DNA from: an uncultured Clostridia bacterium
GTDB lineage: Bacteria > Bacillota > Clostridia > Oscillospirales > JAAYOS01
Direction: 5' to 3'
Length of the DNA: 64,000 nucleotides
NCBI GenBank assembly: GCA_947593925.1
Contig: CANQDU010000004.1
Coordinates: 49,834 to 113,833 of the forward strand
The stretch's first letter is position 1, and every line of letters starts with the position of its first letter. The notes beneath the pieces were generated by a model. That model did no database searches, was not told the DNA's origin, and saw nothing but the letters and a program-made list of their open reading frames with translations. Below, piece after piece: positions 9,036-35,736 of this stretch. The translations under genes were made by a program, and so were the position numbers.

Positions 9036-9413
9036 ATGGCAAGCGAAAAGGTAACTGCTATCATTGAAGAAATCAAGAATCTGACCGTTCTCGAACTGTC
9101 GGATATGGTTCACGAGCTCGAAGAGGTATTCGGCGTTTCCGCCGCTGCCGCTGCCGTCGCGGCTCCCGCCGCCGGCGCCGCCGCTCCCGCCGCCGAGGAG
9201 AAGACCGAGTTTGACGTCGTTCTCGCCGAGGTCGGCGCGAACAAGATCGCCGTCATCAAGGTCGTCCGTGAGGTCACCGGTCTCGGCCTGAAGGAAGCCA
9301 AGGAAGTCGTTGACAACGCTCCGAAGGCCGTCAAGGAAGGCGCGAGCAAGGAAGACGCCGAGGCCATCAAGGCCAAGCTCGAAGAGGCCGGCGCAAAGGT
9401 CGAGCTCAAGTAA
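9036..9413 (+). CDS. rplL: 50S ribosomal protein L7/L12
   Basis: 125 aa. Ala-rich hinge and C-terminal domain [19 protein letters not shown]...EAGAKVELK. Confidence 0.97.
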
Positions 9414-9428
9414 GTTACATTGGTTTGT

Positions 9429-9462
9429 AAAACATCCGCAGGCGTTGCCTGCGGATGTTTTT
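9429..9462 (+). terminator. rplL terminator (copy 1 of a triplicated hairpin)
   Basis: AACATCCGCAGGC-GTT-GCCTGCGGATGTT followed by TTT. Confidence 0.85.
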
Positions 9463-9464
9463 GT

Positions 9465-9760
9465 ATGGCCTCGGCGTCTTCCGGCGGGGCGAAGCCCCGC
9501 CCCGCGCTTATGCGCGGTTAAAGTTGTTTGCCACAGGCAAACAACTTTGCGTAGGGGCGATTCATTCGCCCCGAGCATTTCAATCGGAAGGGTTCCCAAA
9601 AAGTCCACAGGACTTTTTGCGGCGTCAGCCGCAAACCGCGCCTGTTCGCGCGGTTGAAGTTGTCGGCAAAGCCGACAACTTCGCGCAGGGGCGATTCATT
9701 CGCCCCGAGCATTTCAATCGGAAGGGTTCCCAAAAAGTCTTTTAGACTTTTTGGGAATTC
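9465..9760. repeat. Hairpin array inserted between the two rplL-3' copies; contains two tandem ~135-bp units
   Basis: Units start at 9512 and 9648 and share an identical 52-nt core AGGGGCGATTCATTCGCCCCGAGCATTTCAATCGGAAGGGTTCCCAAAAAGTC. Flanking hairpins differ by compensatory changes: AAAGTTGTTTGCC-ACA-GGCAAACAACTTT vs GAAGTTGTCGGC-AAA-GCCGACAACTTC. Confidence 0.85.
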
Positions 9761-9821
9761 AGACGCCGAGGCCATCAAGGCCAAGCTCGAAGAGGCCGGC
9801 GCCAAGGTCGAGCTCAAGTAA
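9761..9821 (+). pseudogene. Orphan duplicate of the last 19 codons of rplL
   Basis: Reads ...[19 protein letters not shown] with no start codon or RBS. It is part of the 408-bp-period duplication. Confidence 0.8.
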
Positions 9822-10024
9822 GTTACATTGGTTTGCGAAACATCCGCAGGCAATGCCTGCGGATGTTTTTGTGTCCGAAATTTGATATATTATCTTAACC
9901 TTCGGTGGATTTCTTCACATTCCGGTAGTATAATAGTCTTAGAGCAAATCTTTCCATGACGATAAGAATAAGTAGTACCGAATGGATGTCTGCCGCACAA
10001 ATCGAGTATCAGCGAGGTTATGAA

Positions 10025-10552
10025 ATGAAGCTGTTTGTTTCTTTTTCGGCAAGAAAAACCGGTAATTGTGCACAGATTATTGATTATCTGAAAACGCCGC
10101 AGGATAAAGTGATTTATTACGCGGATTTGAACGCACACGGATGCAGCGATTGCGGTTATGAGTGTTTCAAAACACAATGCCGCTATCGGGACGATGACGT
10201 TTACCGCCTTTACAGCAGCTTTGCCGACTACGAAAAAGTAATTCTGCTTGTTCCGATGTACTGCGGAAATCCTTCCTCCCTGTATTTTGGCTTTAACGAA
10301 AGAAGTCAGGACTTTTTCATGCACCATGAAAACGAATATACGTCTTTTGTAGAGAGGCTGTTTGTCATCGGCGTCTACGGAAGCAGGAAAGAATCGCCGG
10401 ATTTCATAGGGTGCTTTGAAAAATGGTTTGAGGGAACACCTTACCGGCATCATATTCTGGGGATCGAGCGTCACTTGTACCGGCAGACAATGACAGACAG
10501 CGTAACAGATATTGAACCGGTCAAAGCGGCGCTGCGTGGTTTTATACGGTAA
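10025..10552 (+). CDS. Flavodoxin-like fold / NAD(P)H-dependent FMN reductase-type (iron-sulfur flavoprotein-like) protein
   Basis: The likely start is ATG 10025 (MKLFVSFSARKTGNC...) after GAGG, not the track start 9956. SxRKxGNC P-loop-like motif, Cys cluster HGCSDCGYECFKTQC, and LLVPMYCGNPSS. Visibly AT-richer codon usage than the neighbours. Confidence 0.55.
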   Translation: MKLFVSFSARKTGNCAQIIDYLKTPQDKVIYYADLNAHGCSDCGYECFKTQCRYRDDDVYRLYSSFADYEKVILLVPMYCGNPSSLYFGFNERSQDFFMHHENEYTSFVERLFVIGVYGSRKESPDFIGCFEKWFEGTPYRHHILGIERHLYRQTMTDSVTDIEPVKAALRGFIR

Positions 10553-10602
10553 AGTCCCGTTTGTTGAGGCGAGGTATCGCTTTTTGTAAAGGAGAAGATG
10601 TT

Positions 10603-10806
10603 ATGCCGTTTATGACGCCAATGGCATTGATGCGCAAAAATCTGATAATAAAGAAGCTCAGGGCATGCGGCGCTGTCTCGGAAGAGTCTGCAAAATCTCT
10701 GGCCGAAGCGGGCGTTATAAACCCGGACGGCTTTAAGCGCATAACCGACCGGCTTGTCGAAACCGGCAGCATCCACCGCACTTCCGGCGGCAGATATTAT
10801 GTGTAA
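10603..10806 (+). CDS. Small hypothetical protein (67 aa), possibly winged-helix-like
   Basis: ATG 10603 follows AAAGGAGAA. MPFMTPMALMRKNLIIKKLRACGAVSEESAKSLAEAGV...GSIHRTSGGRYYV. No family recognised with certainty. Confidence 0.45.
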   Translation: MPFMTPMALMRKNLIIKKLRACGAVSEESAKSLAEAGVINPDGFKRITDRLVETGSIHRTSGGRYYV

Positions 10807-10810
10807 CGTA

Positions 10811-10844
10811 AAAACATCCGCAGGCAGCGCCTGCGGATGTTTTT
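10811..10844. terminator. Bidirectional terminator (copy 3 of the rplL terminator hairpin)
   Basis: AACATCCGCAGGC-AGC-GCCTGCGGATGTT flanked by an A-run and a T-run. It lies between the small ORF (+) and the MATE gene (-). Confidence 0.8.
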
Positions 10845-10887
10845 ATCGTCCGAAAGTTCGCCGCATCGCGCCCGCGAGGCTCCGCCG

Positions 10888-25397: not shown

Positions 25398-25750
25398 TGA
25401 GGGCGGAGGCCGCCTCTTCATGTGTGAGGCGCAGCCTCACCACCACCTTCGCGGGGCTGTGCCGCCCCGCACCATCTAGCGGGGAAGCCCCGCGGGCATT
25501 CGCGGGGCGGGTCCCCGCGTCCCTAGGTAGAGCAGAGCTCTACCGACACCTTCGCGGGGCTGTGCCGCCCCGCACCCCTGCGCTACTTTTTGCTCGCGCA
25601 AAAAGTAATCAAAAAGCGCGCTTAAGGGAGAGGGCTTTGCCCTCTCCCTTAAAAATCCCTCTCCCAATACAGACACAACACCATTACCCACATAACAGGG
25701 CACACTCTGTATCCAACAAATCTGTCATCCGACCGGGTGAGTTTCTGGGG
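25398..25750 (-). repeat. Composite multi-hairpin repeat, copy 2 (inverted relative to copies 1 and 3)
   Basis: The reverse complement of 25477-25748 aligns with 15303-15576. Extra hairpins at 25398-25476 include GAGGCGGCCTCCGCCTC-type and GTGAGGC-GCA-GCCTCAC. Confidence 0.85.
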
Positions 25751-25981: not shown

Positions 25982-26275
25982 GAAAACCGTTGGTTTTCTC
26001 CCCTTTGTGTGCTTTTTGGTTACTTTTTGCACAAGCAAAAAGTAACGCAAGGGTGTGGGGCTGCAAAGCCCCACATGGGGGCGCGGGGGCGCAGCCCCCG
26101 CAAACTGCCCGTGAGGCTCTGCCTCACTCAGGGACGCGGGTCTCGCCCCGCGAATGCTCGCGGGGCTTCCCCGCTATACGGGTGTGGGCTTCGCCCGCTC
26201 GGTCGCGGGGCTTCCCCGCCGGATGGGTGTGGGCTCTGCCCACTTGGGTGCGGGCTCCGCCCGCGGATTTGACCG
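25982..26275 (+). repeat. Composite multi-hairpin repeat, copy 3 (diverged; structure conserved)
   Basis: Same order of hairpin modules as copy 1, but several stems carry compensatory substitutions. The 3' part (26138-26200) is nearly identical to 15529-15598. There is an internal tandem duplication of TCGCGGGGCTTCCCCGC...GGGTGTGGGCT. Confidence 0.8.
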
Positions 26276-28435: not shown

Positions 28436-31400
28436 TTACTTTACGATATTCTCGCAGAAGCGCATGAGTATCGTCGCGATCTGCGCGCGAATCGCTCCGC
28501 CGGACGGTGCGAGCGTCGTCTCGGTCGTGCCGTTGATGAGCTCGGTTCCGACGGCCCAGCTCATCGGGGCGGTCGCGTAGCTCTGGACGCTCGCCGCGTC
28601 GGTGTAGGCCGTAAGCTCAGCGGTGGTCGTGACGTCGTACTTCTTGTATGTCGCGTAGCGATAGAGTATCGTAGCTGCTTCCTCACGGGTGAGGTCGCGG
28701 TCGGGACGGAAGGTTCCGTCGCCGTAGCCGCCGACTATCTCGTTCGCCGCCGCCCAGTTGATGGCGTCGGAGTACCACTCGCCCGCCGGGACGTCGCTGA
28801 ACGGAATGCTCTTCGTGACAGCCGGCTCACCGTCGAGACGGTAGAGGATAGTGACGAGCATCGCACGGTCGGTCTGATCGTTCGGCGCGAACGTCGTCTC
28901 GCCGGTGCCGCCCATGAGGCCCTTCTCGACGACGTAGTCGATGGCGTCAACGTACCACGCGTCCTTGACAACGTCGGTGAACTTCGCGGACGGAGCGGGC
29001 TTCGTGCCCTCGACGAACGTGGCCTTGACGGTCGCGCCGCCGGCGGGCATCGTGAAGCTGTAAGTTCCGTCGGCGTTCTTCGTGACGGTCACAGCCGTGC
29101 CGGTGCCGTTCTGAGTGGCGGTGACGGTATCGACAGTGTAGCCTTCCTTCGGGGTGACGGTGACGGTGATCGTCGTGCCCGCGGTCGCGCTCCTCGGCGA
29201 GACCGAGACGGTGCCGTTCGGGTTCGCCGGGACGGTCACGGTGTAGGTCGGGTTGGTGGAAGCATAGTAGCCGCTGAGGGTCACGGTGTAGGCATAGGCG
29301 TCGCCGCTAGCGGTTGCAGTCTTGTTTGCGTTCCAGAAGTTAGCTCCGTCTTTGAGGGTGAAGCCTTCGGGATGAGCGTTCAGAGCGGTTTCAAGAGCGT
29401 CCGCACCAACATAGATGGTCTGATCCGTGCCGTCTACCTTCTCGCCCTTAGTGTAGGTCACCTTGTAGACCTCGAGAGTGGCGGTGCTGGCGGCAGTGCT
29501 TTCGCTCTGCTTCGTCAGAGTAACAGTGTACTTGCCCTGGAAGTCAGTGGCCGGGATATTGCCCTTTTCATTCTGATAGCCGGGTGTGAAGTAGACGATG
29601 CCACCCTCGGTGACGCCGGGAACTGTCTCGGTATACTCCTGTTCGCCCTTGGCAAACTCAACCTCGTATTCCGCTCCGGGTTCTTCCTTAGCGCTGAACG
29701 CGGCGTAGAAGGTGTTGTCAACGCAGTCCTTGATGCCGTCGGCGCCCCACGTCTTTCCCGCGCCCTTGGCCGTCTCAGCCAAGCCGTTCAGATAATCGTT
29801 GTCAGCCTCAGTCAGGAAGCCTGCAGCGACGATTGCCGCCTTACCTTCAATTACACTAATTTCAGCAGTTTTGTTGTCTTCCGCCAACTGCTGCTCAGCT
29901 TCAACAACGGAGGTAAAGTAGCCGTACTCGGTGCCGTCGCCGATGTTGGCCTCGGTGTTCAGGCTCGGATCAAGCAGCTTAGTCCCCTTCAGCGAGGAGG
30001 AGTAATATCCGCCCTTGACGGTGAGGGTCGGAGTCTCTGCTATCTCCGATTTATCCTCGCCGTCCTCGCTGTACACGACAGCGGCCTTGTCCTCTTCGGC
30101 CTTGAACTCGCCGCCGGAAAGGGTGGTGGATCCATTACCATAGCCGGTGCCGGACTTATCCACGACCACGGCAGCGGGCTCGACTTCCACTTTCTTGCTG
30201 CTAGCCTCGGCGTCGCCGACAACCAACTTATCGGTGCCGGTAGCGGTGACATTGCCGCCGGTGACGTCCAGCTTACCGCCGCGGGACACGATGCCGGCCT
30301 TGCCGGTGATGTCGCCCTCGCTCATATCGAGCTCGCCGTTGGGCAGATACACACCCGCGGACCCGGTGCTAGTGATGGTGCCGCCCTTGATCTCAATCTT
30401 GGCGCCCGCCTGTGTCTTGCTGCCGTTGGTGGCGATGCCGAAAGCCTCGGCGTTGATGACGCCGCCGTTGACGGTCAGCTTGCCGGTGCCGAACACGCCC
30501 ACGCCGGACTCGTCCGCCGTGATGGTGCCGCCGTTGATGGTGAGCGTACCGCCGTTGGTGGCAACAGCCGTGTCGTTCTTGGTGTCCTCGCTGCCGGTCT
30601 GCTCGATCTTCACGCTGTTCTCAATGGTGAGGCTGGCAGACTCAGCAAAGGTCGCGATCAGGGTGCCGTTGCCCTTAATTGTACCGATGCCCTTGAGGGT
30701 CAGGCTGCCATTTTTGTCGATCTTGATACCGGCAATGCCGTCCGGCATACCCTCGGTCGCTTTGGTCGCAGCATTCGCAGCAGGCTTGGTCATGGTCTTG
30801 CCGTTCAGGTCGATGACAACGCCGGTCGTGATGACGATGCGGCCTGTTCCATCAGCGCCAGTGCCCGGCAGAGTGATGTCCTTCTCGAGCTTGATGGTCT
30901 TACCGCCCTCGGCGGCCTTGATGGCACGTGCAAGGGTCTTGTAGTAAGTAGTAGTGTTGTTATAGGTGATGGACGCCTCGGCATCTTTCTGCTCGACCGC
31001 CGTCGTCGTAACCTTGCCGATTGTATCGATCTCCGACTCTTCGGGCAGATACTTGTTGACGTTTGCGTTATCCACCGTCTCGCCTGCCTTGAAGGTGCCG
31101 CCGGTAATCTCGAACGGGGAGTTCTCGACCTTGTCACTACCCGTGTTCATCTCTGTTCCATTATCAGCGGCAACAATAGACTTGCCGCTAGCGGCGCCCT
31201 TGATGGTTGCGTCGCCGGAAATGTTCACGTGCAGCTGGCCGTTCTTCTGGTTGGTGTAGTCGGCGTAGTCAACGGTGATACCCGCGGCAGGAACTGCATG
31301 CCCGGCGTCGCCGATGGTGACCTCTTCCGTGCCGGTAGCCTCGACGGTGCCGCCGGTGACGTTCAGCTCTCCGCCGCGCACAACGATACCGGCAGCGCCA

Positions 31401-32569
31401 GTGATTTCAGCCTTGTCGCTGACGTTCATCTTGCCGGAGGGCAGATACACGCCGACGCCGGTCTTACCGCCCTCGGTATTGCCGACGACCTTACCGCCGG
31501 AAACATTGACGGTGACGCCGTTGAAATCACCACCAAAGGTGCCGACGCCAAAAGCGTCGCCCTTAACTGTGCCACCGGCGATGTTGACCTCGGACTGAGA
31601 GGCCGGATAAATGCCACATCTACCTTCGACCGTGCCGCCGCTGACGATAACAGTACCACCCTCGGCCATGCCGTTGCCATTGGCTTGGATACCGGCCTCA
31701 GCGCCCTTGATCGTGGCTTCTGCGCTGACCTTGACCTGACCGGCGCCCCACACGGTAACGCCATAAGGGCCATTCTTCGGTGATGTATCTTCGTTTGTGG
31801 TAGAAATAGTTCCGCCCGTCGCGTTGAGTACGCCGGTGCTGGAGACGGAGACTACGGCGTGATTCGCGGGAACGATGCCCTCGATCTTGCCTCCCTCCAT
31901 GTTGAAGGTGCCATGTACATCGACTATATCTGCCGCTGGATCTGTCTCCTCCACTTTCCGAGAGATGTCGCCCTTAATCGTTCCGCTCTTGAGGTTTACC
32001 GTTGAACCGTCGGCGGCAACAAGAACAGAGCAGTTAGATTTGCCCTGCGTAATGGTGGCATTCTCGCCATTGATCGTCAGGGTCGATTCGCTTCCGACAT
32101 ATATGGTTGCCACTTGAGCTGTGTTCCACGTTGTATTGGTATACGGATACCCACCGGCACCGCCACCCTGTATAAAGTTACCACCCTCAATAGTAAGTTC
32201 AGCTCCCCCATCAACTACGATCAAGTTGCTCGTGTTATTATGGGTTACACTATTATTTACTATATTACTTGTATTTTGCGAGTCCTTTATGGTCAGTTTC
32301 GTGCCGGTTCCGGTCACTTGAAACGCCATGCCACCTACGGCAAAATGTTTGCCCGCGAGGTCGATAGTGTTTGTGCCTTCGGTAAATTTGATGTACTTGC
32401 TACCAGAATAGTCTTTTGTTAGGGTAATGACGTCACCCTTCATTTCGTACCCATCACTACCAAGCACCGTCTGGTAAGAATAGTCCTCTGCTGCCGCGAA
32501 AGCCACAGTCGGGAGCATTGCCACGACCATGACAAGCGCCAGCACAAGTGCTAAAACCTTCTTACGCAT
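28436..32569 (-). CDS. Large secreted cell-wall protein: signal peptide, long Gly/Thr-rich beta-helix-like repeat region, Ig-like/bacterial-repeat domain, three C-terminal SLH domains
   Basis: The true start is ATG 32569 (MRKKVLALVLALVMVVAMLPTVAFA, RBS AAAGGAGAA), not the track start 32989. There are recurrent xGG(T/K)(V/I)x(G/A) turns (VSGGTVEG, IAGGTVKG, VTGGTVEATG, INGGTITA, IKGGTITS...). Three SLH repeats occupy the last 181 aa (28439-28981: FTDV...LYRL, FSDV...LYRY, YTDA...LMRF). Confidence 0.85.
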   Translation of the reverse strand: MRKKVLALVLALVMVVAMLPTVAFAAAEDYSYQTVLGSDGYEMKGDVITLTKDYSGSKYIKFTEGTNTIDLAGKHFAVGGMAFQVTGTGTKLTIKDSQNTSNIVNNSVTHNNTSNLIVVDGGAELTIEGGNFIQGGGAGGYPYTNTTWNTAQVATIYVGSESTLTINGENATITQGKSNCSVLVAADGSTVNLKSGTIKGDISRKVEETDPAADIVDVHGTFNMEGGKIEGIVPANHAVVSVSSTGVLNATGGTISTTNEDTSPKNGPYGVTVWGAGQVKVSAEATIKGAEAGIQANGNGMAEGGTVIVSGGTVEGRCGIYPASQSEVNIAGGTVKGDAFGVGTFGGDFNGVTVNVSGGKVVGNTEGGKTGVGVYLPSGKMNVSDKAEITGAAGIVVRGGELNVTGGTVEATGTEEVTIGDAGHAVPAAGITVDYADYTNQKNGQLHVNISGDATIKGAASGKSIVAADNGTEMNTGSDKVENSPFEITGGTFKAGETVDNANVNKYLPEESEIDTIGKVTTTAVEQKDAEASITYNNTTTYYKTLARAIKAAEGGKTIKLEKDITLPGTGADGTGRIVITTGVVIDLNGKTMTKPAANAATKATEGMPDGIAGIKIDKNGSLTLKGIGTIKGNGTLIATFAESASLTIENSVKIEQTGSEDTKNDTAVATNGGTLTINGGTITADESGVGVFGTGKLTVNGGVINAEAFGIATNGSKTQAGAKIEIKGGTITSTGSAGVYLPNGELDMSEGDITGKAGIVSRGGKLDVTGGNVTATGTDKLVVGDAEASSKKVEVEPAAVVVDKSGTGYGNGSTTLSGGEFKAEEDKAAVVYSEDGEDKSEIAETPTLTVKGGYYSSSLKGTKLLDPSLNTEANIGDGTEYGYFTSVVEAEQQLAEDNKTAEISVIEGKAAIVAAGFLTEADNDYLNGLAETAKGAGKTWGADGIKDCVDNTFYAAFSAKEEPGAEYEVEFAKGEQEYTETVPGVTEGGIVYFTPGYQNEKGNIPATDFQGKYTVTLTKQSESTAASTATLEVYKVTYTKGEKVDGTDQTIYVGADALETALNAHPEGFTLKDGANFWNANKTATASGDAYAYTVTLSGYYASTNPTYTVTVPANPNGTVSVSPRSATAGTTITVTVTPKEGYTVDTVTATQNGTGTAVTVTKNADGTYSFTMPAGGATVKATFVEGTKPAPSAKFTDVVKDAWYVDAIDYVVEKGLMGGTGETTFAPNDQTDRAMLVTILYRLDGEPAVTKSIPFSDVPAGEWYSDAINWAAANEIVGGYGDGTFRPDRDLTREEAATILYRYATYKKYDVTTTAELTAYTDAASVQSYATAPMSWAVGTELINGTTETTLAPSGGAIRAQIATILMRFCENIVK

Positions 32570-32794
32570 TGTTTTGTTTTCTCCTTTCGAACTTTCATTC
32601 AGAATTGTCGGGGAGCTTTTTGCAGCCCTCCGCCCTCTCATACTCCGCCGGGACAACGGAATCGCGGGCTGCGGCAAGCCCGTTTTCCCGTTGTTCCAGC
32701 AGACTCTGAAAGGAGACGGAGTCGCTGTAAGAAAGCTACTCCTCCCGGCGCTTCGCTCTCTCAAAGCACCGGGAGCGGCCGCTTTCAGGCTGTT

Positions 32795-32955
32795 TGCGAA
32801 AAACTCTACTTTTTGGCAGGTTGCGGGACAGCTGAAAGAGGCCGAAAATTCCCTAAAATTTTTATGAAAAAAGACTAGCATTTTCAATTTGAAAGTGATA
32901 TAATTAGGCAAAACGATGTAAGGGTCGAGTTTGCGGAAAAGTAGAGTTTTTCGCA
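32795..32955. promoter_or_regulatory. Perfect 19-bp inverted repeats flanking a 123-bp AT-rich segment with promoter elements; candidate invertible switch or leader stem
   Basis: TGCGAAAAACTCTACTTTT at 32795-32813 and its exact reverse complement at 32937-32955. Inside are the extended -10 TGATATAAT (32896-32904, + strand) and TTGAAA (32887-32882, - strand). The repeat itself is certain; the function is an inference. Confidence 0.45.
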
Positions 32956-33018
32956 GATTTTCACTGCACTTTTTCGCCTTAAAATACAAAATCTGATTGT
33001 GAGTGCTTTCCCGATGCG

Positions 33019-33050
33019 CAAAAAAGCCGCCTGTCTCGCGACAGGCGGCT
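33019..33050 (-). terminator. Terminator of the solute-binding protein gene
   Basis: The minus strand reads AGCCGCCTGTC-GCGA-GACAGGCGGCT followed by TTTTTT. Confidence 0.8.
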
Positions 33051-33150
33051 GTGTTTTTGTGCGGTCATACGAAGGGGGCGGCGCTTGCGCGCCGCCCCCT
33101 TGTCATTCAGTCATTCCCCGCGGAAATCTCACACTAAACCGTTCCGACAA

Positions 33151-34902
33151 TTAGTCGTCGATGTACTGGAGACGTCCGTAGTAGCGGCTCAGAGCTGCCT
33201 GATACATGTCGATGGCGGTCTGGATGCCTATCTGATCCTTCAGCATCGGAACCAGCTCGGTATCGTAGGTATCTACGCTCTTCTCGCCGGTGATGACCTC
33301 GGCGGCCCATTCGACGACCGCGCTGTTCGCGGAGGTCATGATACCGCTCGCGGTGTTGCCTTCCTCAGCGGTGAGGGTGACGCCATCCGGCCACAGCCAG
33401 TCGCTGCCGACGGAGTCCCAAGTGTTGGCGGCGTCAACTTCCTTCTGGGAGAGGACGGTGAACTCACGGTCCCAGATGTAGAGCTGCGGGCCGTTGTGGA
33501 TAGCGAACTTGTTCATGAAGTTCACGCAGGTCTGATACTTGTCCATCATCCACATCTGATAGACTTCCTCGTGTCCGTCGCCGTTGGCGTCGGTCGGGTC
33601 GAGGTAGTAGGAGGAGTTGGTGTCGCCCTCCGGGCCGACATACGGACCCCAGTTGGAGGCGGTGATGCCCTCATCGGTCCAGATGAAGTCCTGATACTTG
33701 AGCGCTATGTCGAGCGGCTCGCAGGCGGTGGTGACGCCGAGCGAGTTGTTGACGCGGACGACGTTGAAGCTCTCACGGCAGTGGAAGTCGGTCTCCCAGT
33801 TCTGGCTGGCGTCAAGCTTCGGGGTCGGGATAGCGACTATCTCGAAGTCGGGATCCGGATACTCGCCGGAGGCGTTGATCTGCTTGAGCATCGCAAGCGA
33901 GGCGTACATGACGTCTCCGCAGCCCATGAAGCCGTTTGCCCAGTAGTCATCCGGGGAAGCCCAGTTGTTCTCGGCGATGTAGTTCCTGTTGACGAGGCCC
34001 TTCTGATACCAGTCGGCCATCTTTCCTATGAACTCCTTGTAGCCGGGCTCAAGAGGAGTGTAAACAGCCGTGCCGTCCTTGTTGAGGAAAGGCATCTGGA
34101 GAGGGCCGGTCACGTTGTAGGAGCCGATGAGCGAGCCGGAATAGGTCGAGGAACCCGTGGAGAGGAAGAGCGGGCCCTGTCCCTCGGTGGTGTAGTCCTT
34201 GAAGACGGTAAGCGCGTTCTCGAGGCCGTCCATCGTCGCAACATCGTCGGTGGTGAGGCCGGCGTCGCTCAGCCAGTCGGCACGGATGCCGGTGCCTATC
34301 CACGAGCCCTGCTGACGGTCGAGTATGCAGTGGACGCCCCAGAGGTTACCGGAGTCGCTGACGCACTGCATGAAGGTGTCGTCATTGCGGTAGACCTGCT
34401 TGAGGTAGTTCGGCATGTACTGCTCCGCCGGCTCATTGAGCCTGAGCAGGAATCCGTCGGCTATCGCCTTGTCAACGCCGCCGGTGTAGTAGCGCTGGAC
34501 GTAGCTGACGAAGTCCGGATAGTCGTTGGAGAGCAGCATGGTCGAGAAGTTCTCGGTCTCGCCGCCGACGGGAGGCGTGAGCCAGTTGATGTGGACGTTG
34601 GTCTTCTCCTCCATCCACTGGAAGAAGACGTTGTCCGCAGTACCGTTGTAGCCCTCGAAGCTGTAATTGTCGGGATGCCACCAGTCGAGAGTGATGACGT
34701 CCTCGCTCAGCGGGAGCTCTATTTCGGCTCCTTCATGAGCGGGAGGCTCGTCGCTCGGCTCGTCGGTGGTGGGCTCGGTGCTCGTGGTTCCGGTCGGAGC
34801 GGAGCTGGGCGGTGTAGAGGTCTTTTCCTCTCCTCCGCCGCATCCGACGAGCAGTCCGGCAAGCATCAACACGGCGAGCAGCAAGCATAGTGTTTTTTTC
34901 AT
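33151..34902 (-). CDS. ABC transporter extracellular solute-binding lipoprotein (family 1, large sugar-binding type)
   Basis: Start ATG 34902 (MKKTLCLLLAVLMLAGLLVGCGGG lipobox), 583 aa. No permease or ATPase genes are adjacent. Confidence 0.8.
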   Translation of the reverse strand: MKKTLCLLLAVLMLAGLLVGCGGGEEKTSTPPSSAPTGTTSTEPTTDEPSDEPPAHEGAEIELPLSEDVITLDWWHPDNYSFEGYNGTADNVFFQWMEEKTNVHINWLTPPVGGETENFSTMLLSNDYPDFVSYVQRYYTGGVDKAIADGFLLRLNEPAEQYMPNYLKQVYRNDDTFMQCVSDSGNLWGVHCILDRQQGSWIGTGIRADWLSDAGLTTDDVATMDGLENALTVFKDYTTEGQGPLFLSTGSSTYSGSLIGSYNVTGPLQMPFLNKDGTAVYTPLEPGYKEFIGKMADWYQKGLVNRNYIAENNWASPDDYWANGFMGCGDVMYASLAMLKQINASGEYPDPDFEIVAIPTPKLDASQNWETDFHCRESFNVVRVNNSLGVTTACEPLDIALKYQDFIWTDEGITASNWGPYVGPEGDTNSSYYLDPTDANGDGHEEVYQMWMMDKYQTCVNFMNKFAIHNGPQLYIWDREFTVLSQKEVDAANTWDSVGSDWLWPDGVTLTAEEGNTASGIMTSANSAVVEWAAEVITGEKSVDTYDTELVPMLKDQIGIQTAIDMYQAALSRYYGRLQYIDD

Positions 34903-35046: not shown

Positions 35047-35736
35047 TTATTCGTACCGGATAAGCTCGCCGCGCAGCTTGTCTAGCGCTTTCTTCTCTAT
35101 GCGCGAAACGTAGCTCCGCGAGATGCCGTAGCGCGCCGCTATTTCGCGCTGCGTGAGCGGCGCCGCGCCGTCGAGACCGTATCGGAGCGACACTATCTCA
35201 TGCTCGCGCGGCTCGAGCACGCGCTCCATGACGTCGAGCAGGCGCGCCTTCCGCTCCTCGCGGCTGATGCTCTCGATCATCTCCTCGGATGTATCGGCGA
35301 TGGTGTCGCCGAGGACGAGCGGGTCGCCGTCCCCGGCGGCGTCGAGCTCGTCGTCAAGCGACAGCTCCCCCGCCGTCTTGCGGAGGCCGCGAAAGTGCAT
35401 CAGTATCTCGTTTTCGATGCACCGGCCGGCGTAGGTCGCGAGGCGGATGTTCTTCGTGTAGTCGAAGGTGTCTATCGCCTTTATGAGGCCGATGGTACCT
35501 ATCGAGATGAGATCCTCCTGATCCGCCGCGGAGGTGTAGTATTTCTTTATGACGTGCGCCACGAGGCGCAGATTGTGCTCTATCAGCCTGTCGCGGGCGT
35601 GCTTGTCCCCCTCGGCGCGGAGCTCCAGGCAGCGGCGCTCCTCCTCGGCGGAGAGCGGCTTCGGGAAAGTCCCGCCGCCGTTTATCCTCAGCGTCATGTA
35701 GAACCCGTGAAGTATCAGCCAGAGCGCTATGTTCAT
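35047..35736 (-). CDS. sigK: Sporulation sigma factor SigK (pro-sigma-K), uninterrupted
   Basis: TFPKPLSAEEERRCLELRAEGDKHARDRLIEHNLRLVAHVIKKY, GTIGLIKAIDTF, RCIENEILMHFR and ISRSYVSRIEKKAL closely parallel B. subtilis SigK, including a hydrophobic pro-sequence. Start is ambiguous: ATG 35736, TTG 35739 or GTG 35748. Confidence 0.85.
   Translation of the reverse strand: MNIALWLILHGFYMTLRINGGGTFPKPLSAEEERRCLELRAEGDKHARDRLIEHNLRLVAHVIKKYYTSAADQEDLISIGTIGLIKAIDTFDYTKNIRLATYAGRCIENEILMHFRGLRKTAGELSLDDELDAAGDGDPLVLGDTIADTSEEMIESISREERKARLLDVMERVLEPREHEIVSLRYGLDGAAPLTQREIAARYGISRSYVSRIEKKALDKLRGELIRYE

Follow-up and report, generated by a model that had tools for sequence, protein, structure and literature searches.

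A large SLH-anchored surface protein is very probably subject to ON/OFF phase variation by a site-specific invertible promoter (an inverton) that lies in front of its gene. In the window, as we call the whole 64-kb stretch of DNA that was analysed, the switch is located 225 nt upstream of the start codon (ATG 32569) of the SLH gene, and its parts are listed in Table 1. The initial annotation had described a 19-nt repeat, an AT-rich interior, an extended -10 element and a TTGAAA hexamer in this region, all of which we recovered at the same coordinates, and had proposed that they make up an invertible switch. That proposal is supported by a related contig, L004, in which the inner segment is flipped between collinear flanks.

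Table 1. Features of the switch region, in window coordinates. A dot in the strand column marks features assigned to neither strand.
Feature	Position	Strand	Basis or remark
Controlled gene, 1377-aa secreted surface protein	28436-32569	-	signal peptide, domain search
GC-rich structured leader, 225 nt, switch to ATG	32570-32794	-	conserved in L004, L018 and L019
RBS GAAAGGAGA	32588-32580	-	
Leader hairpin 2	32634-32713	-	
Anti-SD-like UCUCCUUUC	32716-32708	-	
Leader hairpin 1	32731-32786	-	
IRL, putative gene-proximal recombination site, 24 bp	32795-32818	+	perfect 19-nt arm 32795-32813
IRL outer half-site TGCGAAAAA	32795-32803	+	
IRL spacer CTCTAC	32804-32809	+	
IRL inner half-site TTTTTGGCA	32810-32818	+	
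Invertible AT-rich segment, 123 bp between perfect arms (113 bp between 24-bp sites)	32814-32936	.	GC, comparison with L004
P2, candidate weaker divergent promoter: TTGAAA (32887-32882), 18 nt, AAAAAT (32863-32858)	32858-32887	-	consensus scan, 9/12 matches
P1, predicted promoter: TAGCAT (32876-32881), 17-nt spacer, extended -10 TGaTATAAT (TGATATAAT, 32896-32904)	32876-32904	+	
IRR, putative gene-distal recombination site, 24 bp, inverted	32932-32955	-	perfect 19-nt arm 32937-32955
IRR read on the + strand: TGCGGAAAA (32932-32940), GTAGAG (32941-32946), TTTTTCGCA (32947-32955)	32932-32955	+	
Bidirectional terminator-like hairpin closing the upstream gene	33025-33050	.	terminator-like on both strands

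The product of the controlled gene, 1377 aa in length, carries a signal peptide and has a repetitive, Gly-rich ectodomain as well as a Flg_new_2 domain; three SLH domains at its C terminus serve for anchoring to the cell wall. The gene upstream of it (33151-34902, - strand) encodes a 583-aa lipoprotein that resembles solute-binding proteins (SBP-like), and beyond that lies a gene for a SigK-like sporulation sigma factor (35047-35736, - strand). A strong terminator had been noted after the SBP-like gene, and we indeed find one there, the hairpin at 33025-33050, whose terminator-like character holds on both strands; a second hairpin after the same gene occupies 33072-33101.

The repeat consists of TGCGAAAAACTCTACTTTT at 32795-32813 and its exact reverse complement at 32937-32955, and the pair reaches 24 nt at 92% complementarity (32795-32818 / 32932-32955). 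Among all perfect inverted repeats of the window with a spacer of 30-1000 nt, this 19-nt pair is the longest; in 200 Markov-simulated windows, which set the chance level, the longest perfect inverted repeat measured 12-16 nt. No further match to the 19-mer was found in the 64-kb window with up to 3 mismatches allowed (expected matches, 0.01), and two or more matches appeared in 0 of 100 shuffles.

Read from the sequence, each 24-bp site is dyad-symmetric with a 9-6-9 layout: two half-sites, which are reverse complements of one another at 8 of 9 positions and follow the consensus TGCSRAAAA, surround an asymmetric 6-bp spacer, CTCTAC. On the opposite strand (32955-32932), the gene-distal site reads TGCGAAAAA, CTCTAC, TTTTCCGCA. 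The spacer is invariant in all six sites of the window, L004 and a paralogous locus, L018, and this combination of dyad and invariant spacer is the architecture of a protein-recognised site. Tyrosine recombinases act on core sites of this general plan, with half-sites around a short spacer (loxP is 13-8-13, dif is 11-6-11); the asymmetric overlap region sets the direction, and sites in inverted orientation lead to inversion. The sites in the window have the corresponding layout, that is, inverted half-sites around an asymmetric overlap in the 6-8 bp range that is identical between the partners. The same 9-6-9 layout would also be compatible with a serine recombinase or serine invertase. One property counts against inversion: the sites lie only 142 bp apart, centre to centre, which is short for synapsis without a bending factor.

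The window contains other repeats as well. After rplL (9036-9413), the region 9350-10850 is rearranged: the last 112 nt of rplL and its terminator hairpin are duplicated 408 nt downstream (9353-9464 / 9761-9872, 96%), two tandem 92-nt units (9541-9632 and 9675-9766) lie between these copies, 9465-9482 is the exact reverse complement of 9350-9367, and a third copy of the terminator hairpin (10811-10844) follows an unannotated 198-aa ORF (9956-10552). These repeats may represent a small repeated element or a local rearrangement. Elsewhere, an 18-nt perfect GC-rich inverted repeat that is nearly palindromic, TAGCGGGGAAGCCCCGCG, is found at 25477-25494 and 26159-26176, 664 nt apart; the copies lie upstream of a response-regulator gene and are probably repeated hairpin or terminator units.

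The inverted state came to light when 185,579 species, each represented by one genome, were scanned for the two arms, the gap between which was allowed to vary in length. A single contig matched: L004 (CANPWY010000028.1), from a rabbit-gut MAG of an uncultured Clostridia bacterium. Its flanks are collinear with those of the window, matching at 213/230 positions towards the leader and at 156/217 towards the terminator, whereas its inner 123 bp match the window at 109/123 when reverse-complemented and at 69/137 in the same sense, and the flip is bounded exactly by the arms. The inner half-sites have swapped partners, as expected from an exchange within the spacer. The repeat pair, whose conservation the initial annotation had taken as a touchstone, is retained: both 19-mers are the same in L004, which keeps the gene, and the sites are also present in L018. 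The outcome that had been predicted for a flip is likewise what L004 displays, with TGATATAAT ~30 nt from the gene-proximal repeat and pointing at the SLH gene. Both orientations relative to fixed flanks are therefore represented, one by the window and two further assemblies of its strain (L001 and L013), the other by L004. L004 comes from a related, distinct lineage, with an SBP-like protein that is ~91% identical, and the flip could therefore be a difference fixed between the two lineages.

L018, which comes from the same sample as L001, carries a paralogous SLH protein (P0080, 1866 aa) at an unrelated locus, together with a second copy of the switch. Its two sites, TTGCGAAAACCTCTACTTTTTGGCA and TGCAAAAAAGTAGAGTTTTTCGCAA, have 113 nt between them and match the window sites at 23/24 and 23/24 positions; its inner segment and leader hairpins are homologous to those of the window, and the surrounding leader is only ~75% identical. 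Taking p = 0.8, given that the surroundings of the paralogs are ~75-80% identical, a binomial estimate for at least 46/48 site matches is ~2e-3. The sites are the best-conserved part of the region shared by the window and L018, as expected for protein-binding sites. This shared site consensus covers two loci, the window and L018, the latter tied only to the sample of L001.

The 123-bp segment has a GC content of 0.31-0.35, versus ~0.6 in the flanks, and judged by its elements P1 appears to be the sole strong sigma-A-type promoter of the intergenic region. Its extended -10 is perfect and its -35 (TAGCAT) is poor; it is kept in L004 and, as TTGCAT-17-TGaTAAAAT, in L018, with 17-nt spacing in all three copies. 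In the window P1 points away from the SLH gene, with a predicted start at ~32911, and promoter consensus suggests that the window orientation is probably the OFF state. On the gene strand, the consensus scan called no promoter in 32956-33018, the stretch from the terminator to the switch, nor any in the GC-rich leader, and in L018 the upstream terminator is only 23 nt from the switch, so that a promoter cannot lie upstream of the switch there. As no promoter can be placed outside the segment, the evidence indicates a fimS-type inversion of the promoter.

We propose the following mechanism. Two 24-bp core sites in inverted orientation would enclose a 113-bp AT-rich segment that carries P1, and a recombinase encoded outside would exchange strands within the spacer, whereupon the segment flips. 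In the window state P1 would run ~140 nt outward into the bidirectional terminator, the hairpin that closes the upstream gene and that would also stop transcripts of an outward-facing P1, and weak basal transcription of the SLH gene from P2 would be possible. In the flipped state, as in L004, the P1 transcript would reach ATG 32569 through a ~270-nt 5′ leader made up of 26 nt of the segment, the 19-nt arm and the 225-nt leader.

The assignment of ON and OFF has a complication in P2, which in the window orientation faces the SLH gene. Because the -35 of P1 is poor and P2 faces the gene, ON and OFF could be reversed, or the switch could be one between high and low expression. Such a reading, which we regard as unlikely, takes two forms: either P2 drives the gene in the window orientation and P1 in the flipped one, so that inversion would toggle between two levels of expression or between two regulatory inputs, or the true promoter is P2 and the L004 orientation is the OFF state. 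P2 has 9/12 consensus matches, and the scan picks it up in the window as well as in L004; its TTGAAA hexamer is kept in all three copies of the switch; and it faces the gene in all same-strain assemblies as well as in L018. In L018, however, an extra A puts AAAAAT at 19-nt spacing and the scan calls no promoter, and TAAAAA, the other possible -10, does not have the near-invariant T at its end. P1, by contrast, has a perfect extended -10, with the 17-nt spacing found in every copy. Furthermore, terminator-like hairpins lie on the outward side at both loci, which fits an active outward P1; in L018 the scan calls the equivalent hairpin on the + strand, and on the - strand no more than a shorter sub-stem. 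The balance of these points is why we prefer a P1-based ON/OFF switch.

Independent assemblies of the window strain were recovered by exact look-up of the 583-aa SBP-like protein; the same kind of look-up with the 607-aa start of this protein, or with the full SLH protein, gave no match. All of the sequences are short-read metagenome assemblies, with ~6-8x coverage. L001 and L013 do not differ from the window wherever the switch region was aligned or inspected, and their segments face the same way. Every same-strain assembly that spans the switch, namely the window, L001 and L013, thus has the putative OFF orientation, as does the paralog L018; a P2-driven, always-expressed gene would give the same all-one-orientation picture. 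A fourth assembly, L002, is a 5,823-bp SPAdes contig from a sample other than those of L001 and L013. The 264 bp next to the switch are the same as in the window, and the contig stops precisely at 32937 in window coordinates, which is the final base of the perfect arm and also the last one that both orientations have in common. In de Bruijn assembly with SPAdes, all k-mers are longer than 19 nt, and a repeat of this length should not by itself break the contig, whereas a population of mixed orientation would produce a graph branch at 32937, just where L002 ends. The end of this single contig therefore suggests, indirectly, that both orientations may coexist in one sample.

These data also bear on the idea that the feature is static, either the relic of one ancient inversion or only an RNA or DNA stem, with the difference between the window and L004 a fixed rearrangement. 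That the two orientations were seen in different lineages, and that all three complete same-strain contigs agree, is what a static feature would give, but we consider it improbable on four counts. The 19-mers are the same within and between lineages despite a diverged leader (~94%) and inner segment (~89%); 46/48 site positions match between paralogs whose surroundings are ~75-80% identical; the 9-6-9 dyad with its invariant spacer looks like a protein-recognised site; and contig L002 breaks exactly at the predicted branch point. The simplest version, which the initial annotation had offered as its own alternative, namely that the repeats form a plain RNA stem in the 5′ UTR, fails to account for a segment inverted between fixed flanks.

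The leader that follows the switch is itself of interest as a possible regulatory element. Its anti-SD-like UCUCCUUUC is invariant and complementary to the RBS GAAAGGAGA, and its hairpins show compensatory changes in 10/57 predicted pairs, features from which it may be an SD-sequestering regulatory RNA. The leader is common to paralogous SLH genes (L018 3770-4000; L019 556-760), including that of L019, which has no switch. A search of 32300-33300 against Rfam with E up to 5 gave no credible family for either switch or leader. We also considered L019 as a guide to a fixed promoter, but it was uninformative, as its leader begins right after the stop codon of the upstream gene.

A structured leader raises the question of a switch of the C. 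difficile cwpV type, in which the promoter is external and inversion alters the leader RNA, creating a terminator or elongation block in one orientation. This is the closest biological precedent in Clostridia, and the SLH gene also has a long structured leader, yet we judge such a mechanism very improbable here: the scan called no gene-strand promoter in 32956-33018, only 23 nt are available between terminator and switch in L018, there is no terminator-like hairpin on the mRNA strand inside the switch in either the window orientation or the flipped L004 orientation, and the segment itself contains a perfect extended -10. As for mis-assembly of the L004 orientation or of the L002 break, conceivable in principle because short-read metagenome assemblies at ~6-8x coverage were used throughout, it is hardly credible, given that a base-exact inversion at 19-nt repeats needs real molecules when k-mers are at least 21 and that no base differs between the independent assemblies of the window strain.

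An inversion within the coding sequence was another candidate. The SLH frame is open for 140 codons upstream of its ATG, to 32989, across both leader and switch (a 1517-aa ORF with a TTG start, 32570-32989, - strand), which could suggest an intragenic inversion or an N-terminal extension. We rejected this, as several stop codons interrupt the region in L004, L018 and L019, implying that the open frame in the window is a coincidence; in addition, a strong RBS and the signal peptide begin at ATG 32569.

The proteins behind the switch differ far more than the switch itself does. Comparison of the window's SLH protein with that of L004 (1-3240) shows that the leader, the RBS and the signal peptide (MRKKVLALVLAL...) are common to both, whereas the ectodomains align only in partial stretches, at ~25-30% identity; P0080 is 92% identical to the window protein, over 21% of the length only. 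It looks as though the exposed domain has been swapped, cassette-like, behind a conserved regulatory and anchoring frame. So radical a difference in the exposed domain between close relatives points to diversifying pressure, be it from phage, host immunity or substrate adhesion.

The SLH locus is also accessory. Close relatives L005-L012, whose SBP-like protein is >90% identical, have neither the SLH gene nor the switch, which makes this a synteny breakpoint; they were reached via the cluster of the upstream SBP-like protein and are uninformative on the orientation of the segment. Downstream of the SigK-SBP pair, these relatives instead have Metallophos, DUF1540 and threonine synthase genes (one case) or LacI, GH3 and sulfatase genes (the others). 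On L019 (4882-8596), an SLH homologue, P0075, which is 51% identical, adjoins genes for a MobA/MobL relaxase and a large serine recombinase. This neighbourhood places P0075 on a mobile element and suggests horizontal movement of the surface-protein family.

A Pfam search of ~45 large ORFs found no tyrosine or serine recombinase in the 64-kb window, and no recombinase gene was found near L018. We therefore infer that the recombinase acts in trans, from outside the 64 kb; by analogy, it is most likely an Xer/FimB-like tyrosine recombinase. An unrelated inverton (L021 818-2185 / L022 1985-3352) was seen in front of a distant SLH homologue (P0076, 1969 aa), which is preceded by a 279-aa Xer-like tyrosine recombinase. 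The upstream intergenic region in that organism is AT-rich, and between the arms of an unrelated 32-nt inverted-repeat pair (L021 1662-1693 / 2022-2053, 328 nt apart) lies a perfect TTGACA-17-TATAAT directed at the SLH gene, with the same orientation in both samples. Invertible-promoter control thus recurs in the SLH protein family, at least once with a tyrosine recombinase. A tblastn search of the window with this recombinase found nothing. One exact and one relaxed pattern scan of JGI metagenomes gave no match to the switch motif. The lineage is a poorly sampled, uncultured one of rabbit-gut Clostridia, its inverted-repeat motif being matched in one of 185,579 species genomes; ribosomal protein L11 of the window lineage has no other member in its 90% cluster.

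The switch can be compared with several known systems. In E. coli, the fimS element switches type 1 fimbriae: the FimB and FimE tyrosine recombinases invert a 314-bp segment bounded by 9-bp inverted repeats. As in fimS, the promoter of a gene for a surface structure would lie on a short intergenic segment between inverted repeats and read either into the gene or away from it, and the half-sites around a short spacer are typical of tyrosine recombinases. The differences from fimS are a shorter segment (123 bp against 314 bp), longer sites (19-24 bp against 9-bp repeats), the lack of a neighbouring recombinase gene, a structured leader of ~270 nt downstream, and the host, a Gram-positive spore-former with a SigK-like gene next door. 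In Bacteroides, the invertible promoters of capsule and surface-protein genes are served by a global invertase, Mpi, which is a serine recombinase. The switch resembles that system in having near-identical sites and promoter segments at two or more loci (the window and L018) with no adjacent recombinase, which would imply one trans-acting enzyme for a family of surface-protein promoters. It differs in phylum, in its sigma-A TGnTATAAT promoter, in its inverted-repeat motif and in comprising two loci only.

The C. difficile cwpV switch, inverted by RecV, has its promoter upstream of the switch, and in the OFF state an intrinsic terminator is made (PMC2784873); CwpV is a large cell-wall-anchored protein whose anchor is conserved and whose exposed domain varies between strains (PMC3080850). 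The two systems share the class Clostridia, a large wall-anchored protein with a variable exposed domain, inverted repeats of ~20 bp, a segment of <200 bp and a recombinase unlinked to the switch. They differ in that an external promoter and an OFF-state terminator were both looked for here and not found, in anchoring (SLH versus CWB2) and in the repeats, which have no sequence similarity. The biologically closest system is thus cwpV, both of whose defining mechanistic features fail here, and the behaviour is like that of fimS.

Invertons near surface genes have been catalogued by the thousands in gut bacteria, including Clostridia (PMC11892184, PMC11602134), and the PhaseFinder and DeepInverton surveys link, for example, inverton group 139 to tyrosine recombinases (PMC11892184; PMC11602134). 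The switch is like the catalogued Clostridia invertons, which have tyrosine invertases, in its intergenic position near a cell-surface gene and in inverted repeats of 10-40 nt; it is unlike them in coming from an uncultured, poorly sampled lineage and in having a repeat motif that was found nowhere else in the genomes and metagenomes scanned. It joins a known class, the invertons of gut bacteria, and its presumed phase variation is of a conventional type, so that the general understanding of invertons is unchanged by it.

What the switch adds is a very probable phase-variation system for an uncultured, poorly sampled lineage of herbivore-gut Clostridia, and one that is experimentally tractable, given a defined 9-6-9 site with CTCTAC, a second paralogous switch and natural alleles in the putative ON and OFF states. 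We tentatively suggest, as a possibility somewhat short of an even chance, that the window and L018 belong to a family of invertible promoters that is specific to the lineage and depends on a single unlinked recombinase. Each member would stand before a different SLH protein with a hypervariable ectodomain and be coupled to a conserved structured 5′ leader of a hitherto undescribed kind, with an anti-SD element. If this is true, single cells of this S-layer-type gut bacterium would show combinatorial surface coats, and the family would be a Gram-positive counterpart of the Bacteroides capsule system, with control at the RNA level in addition.
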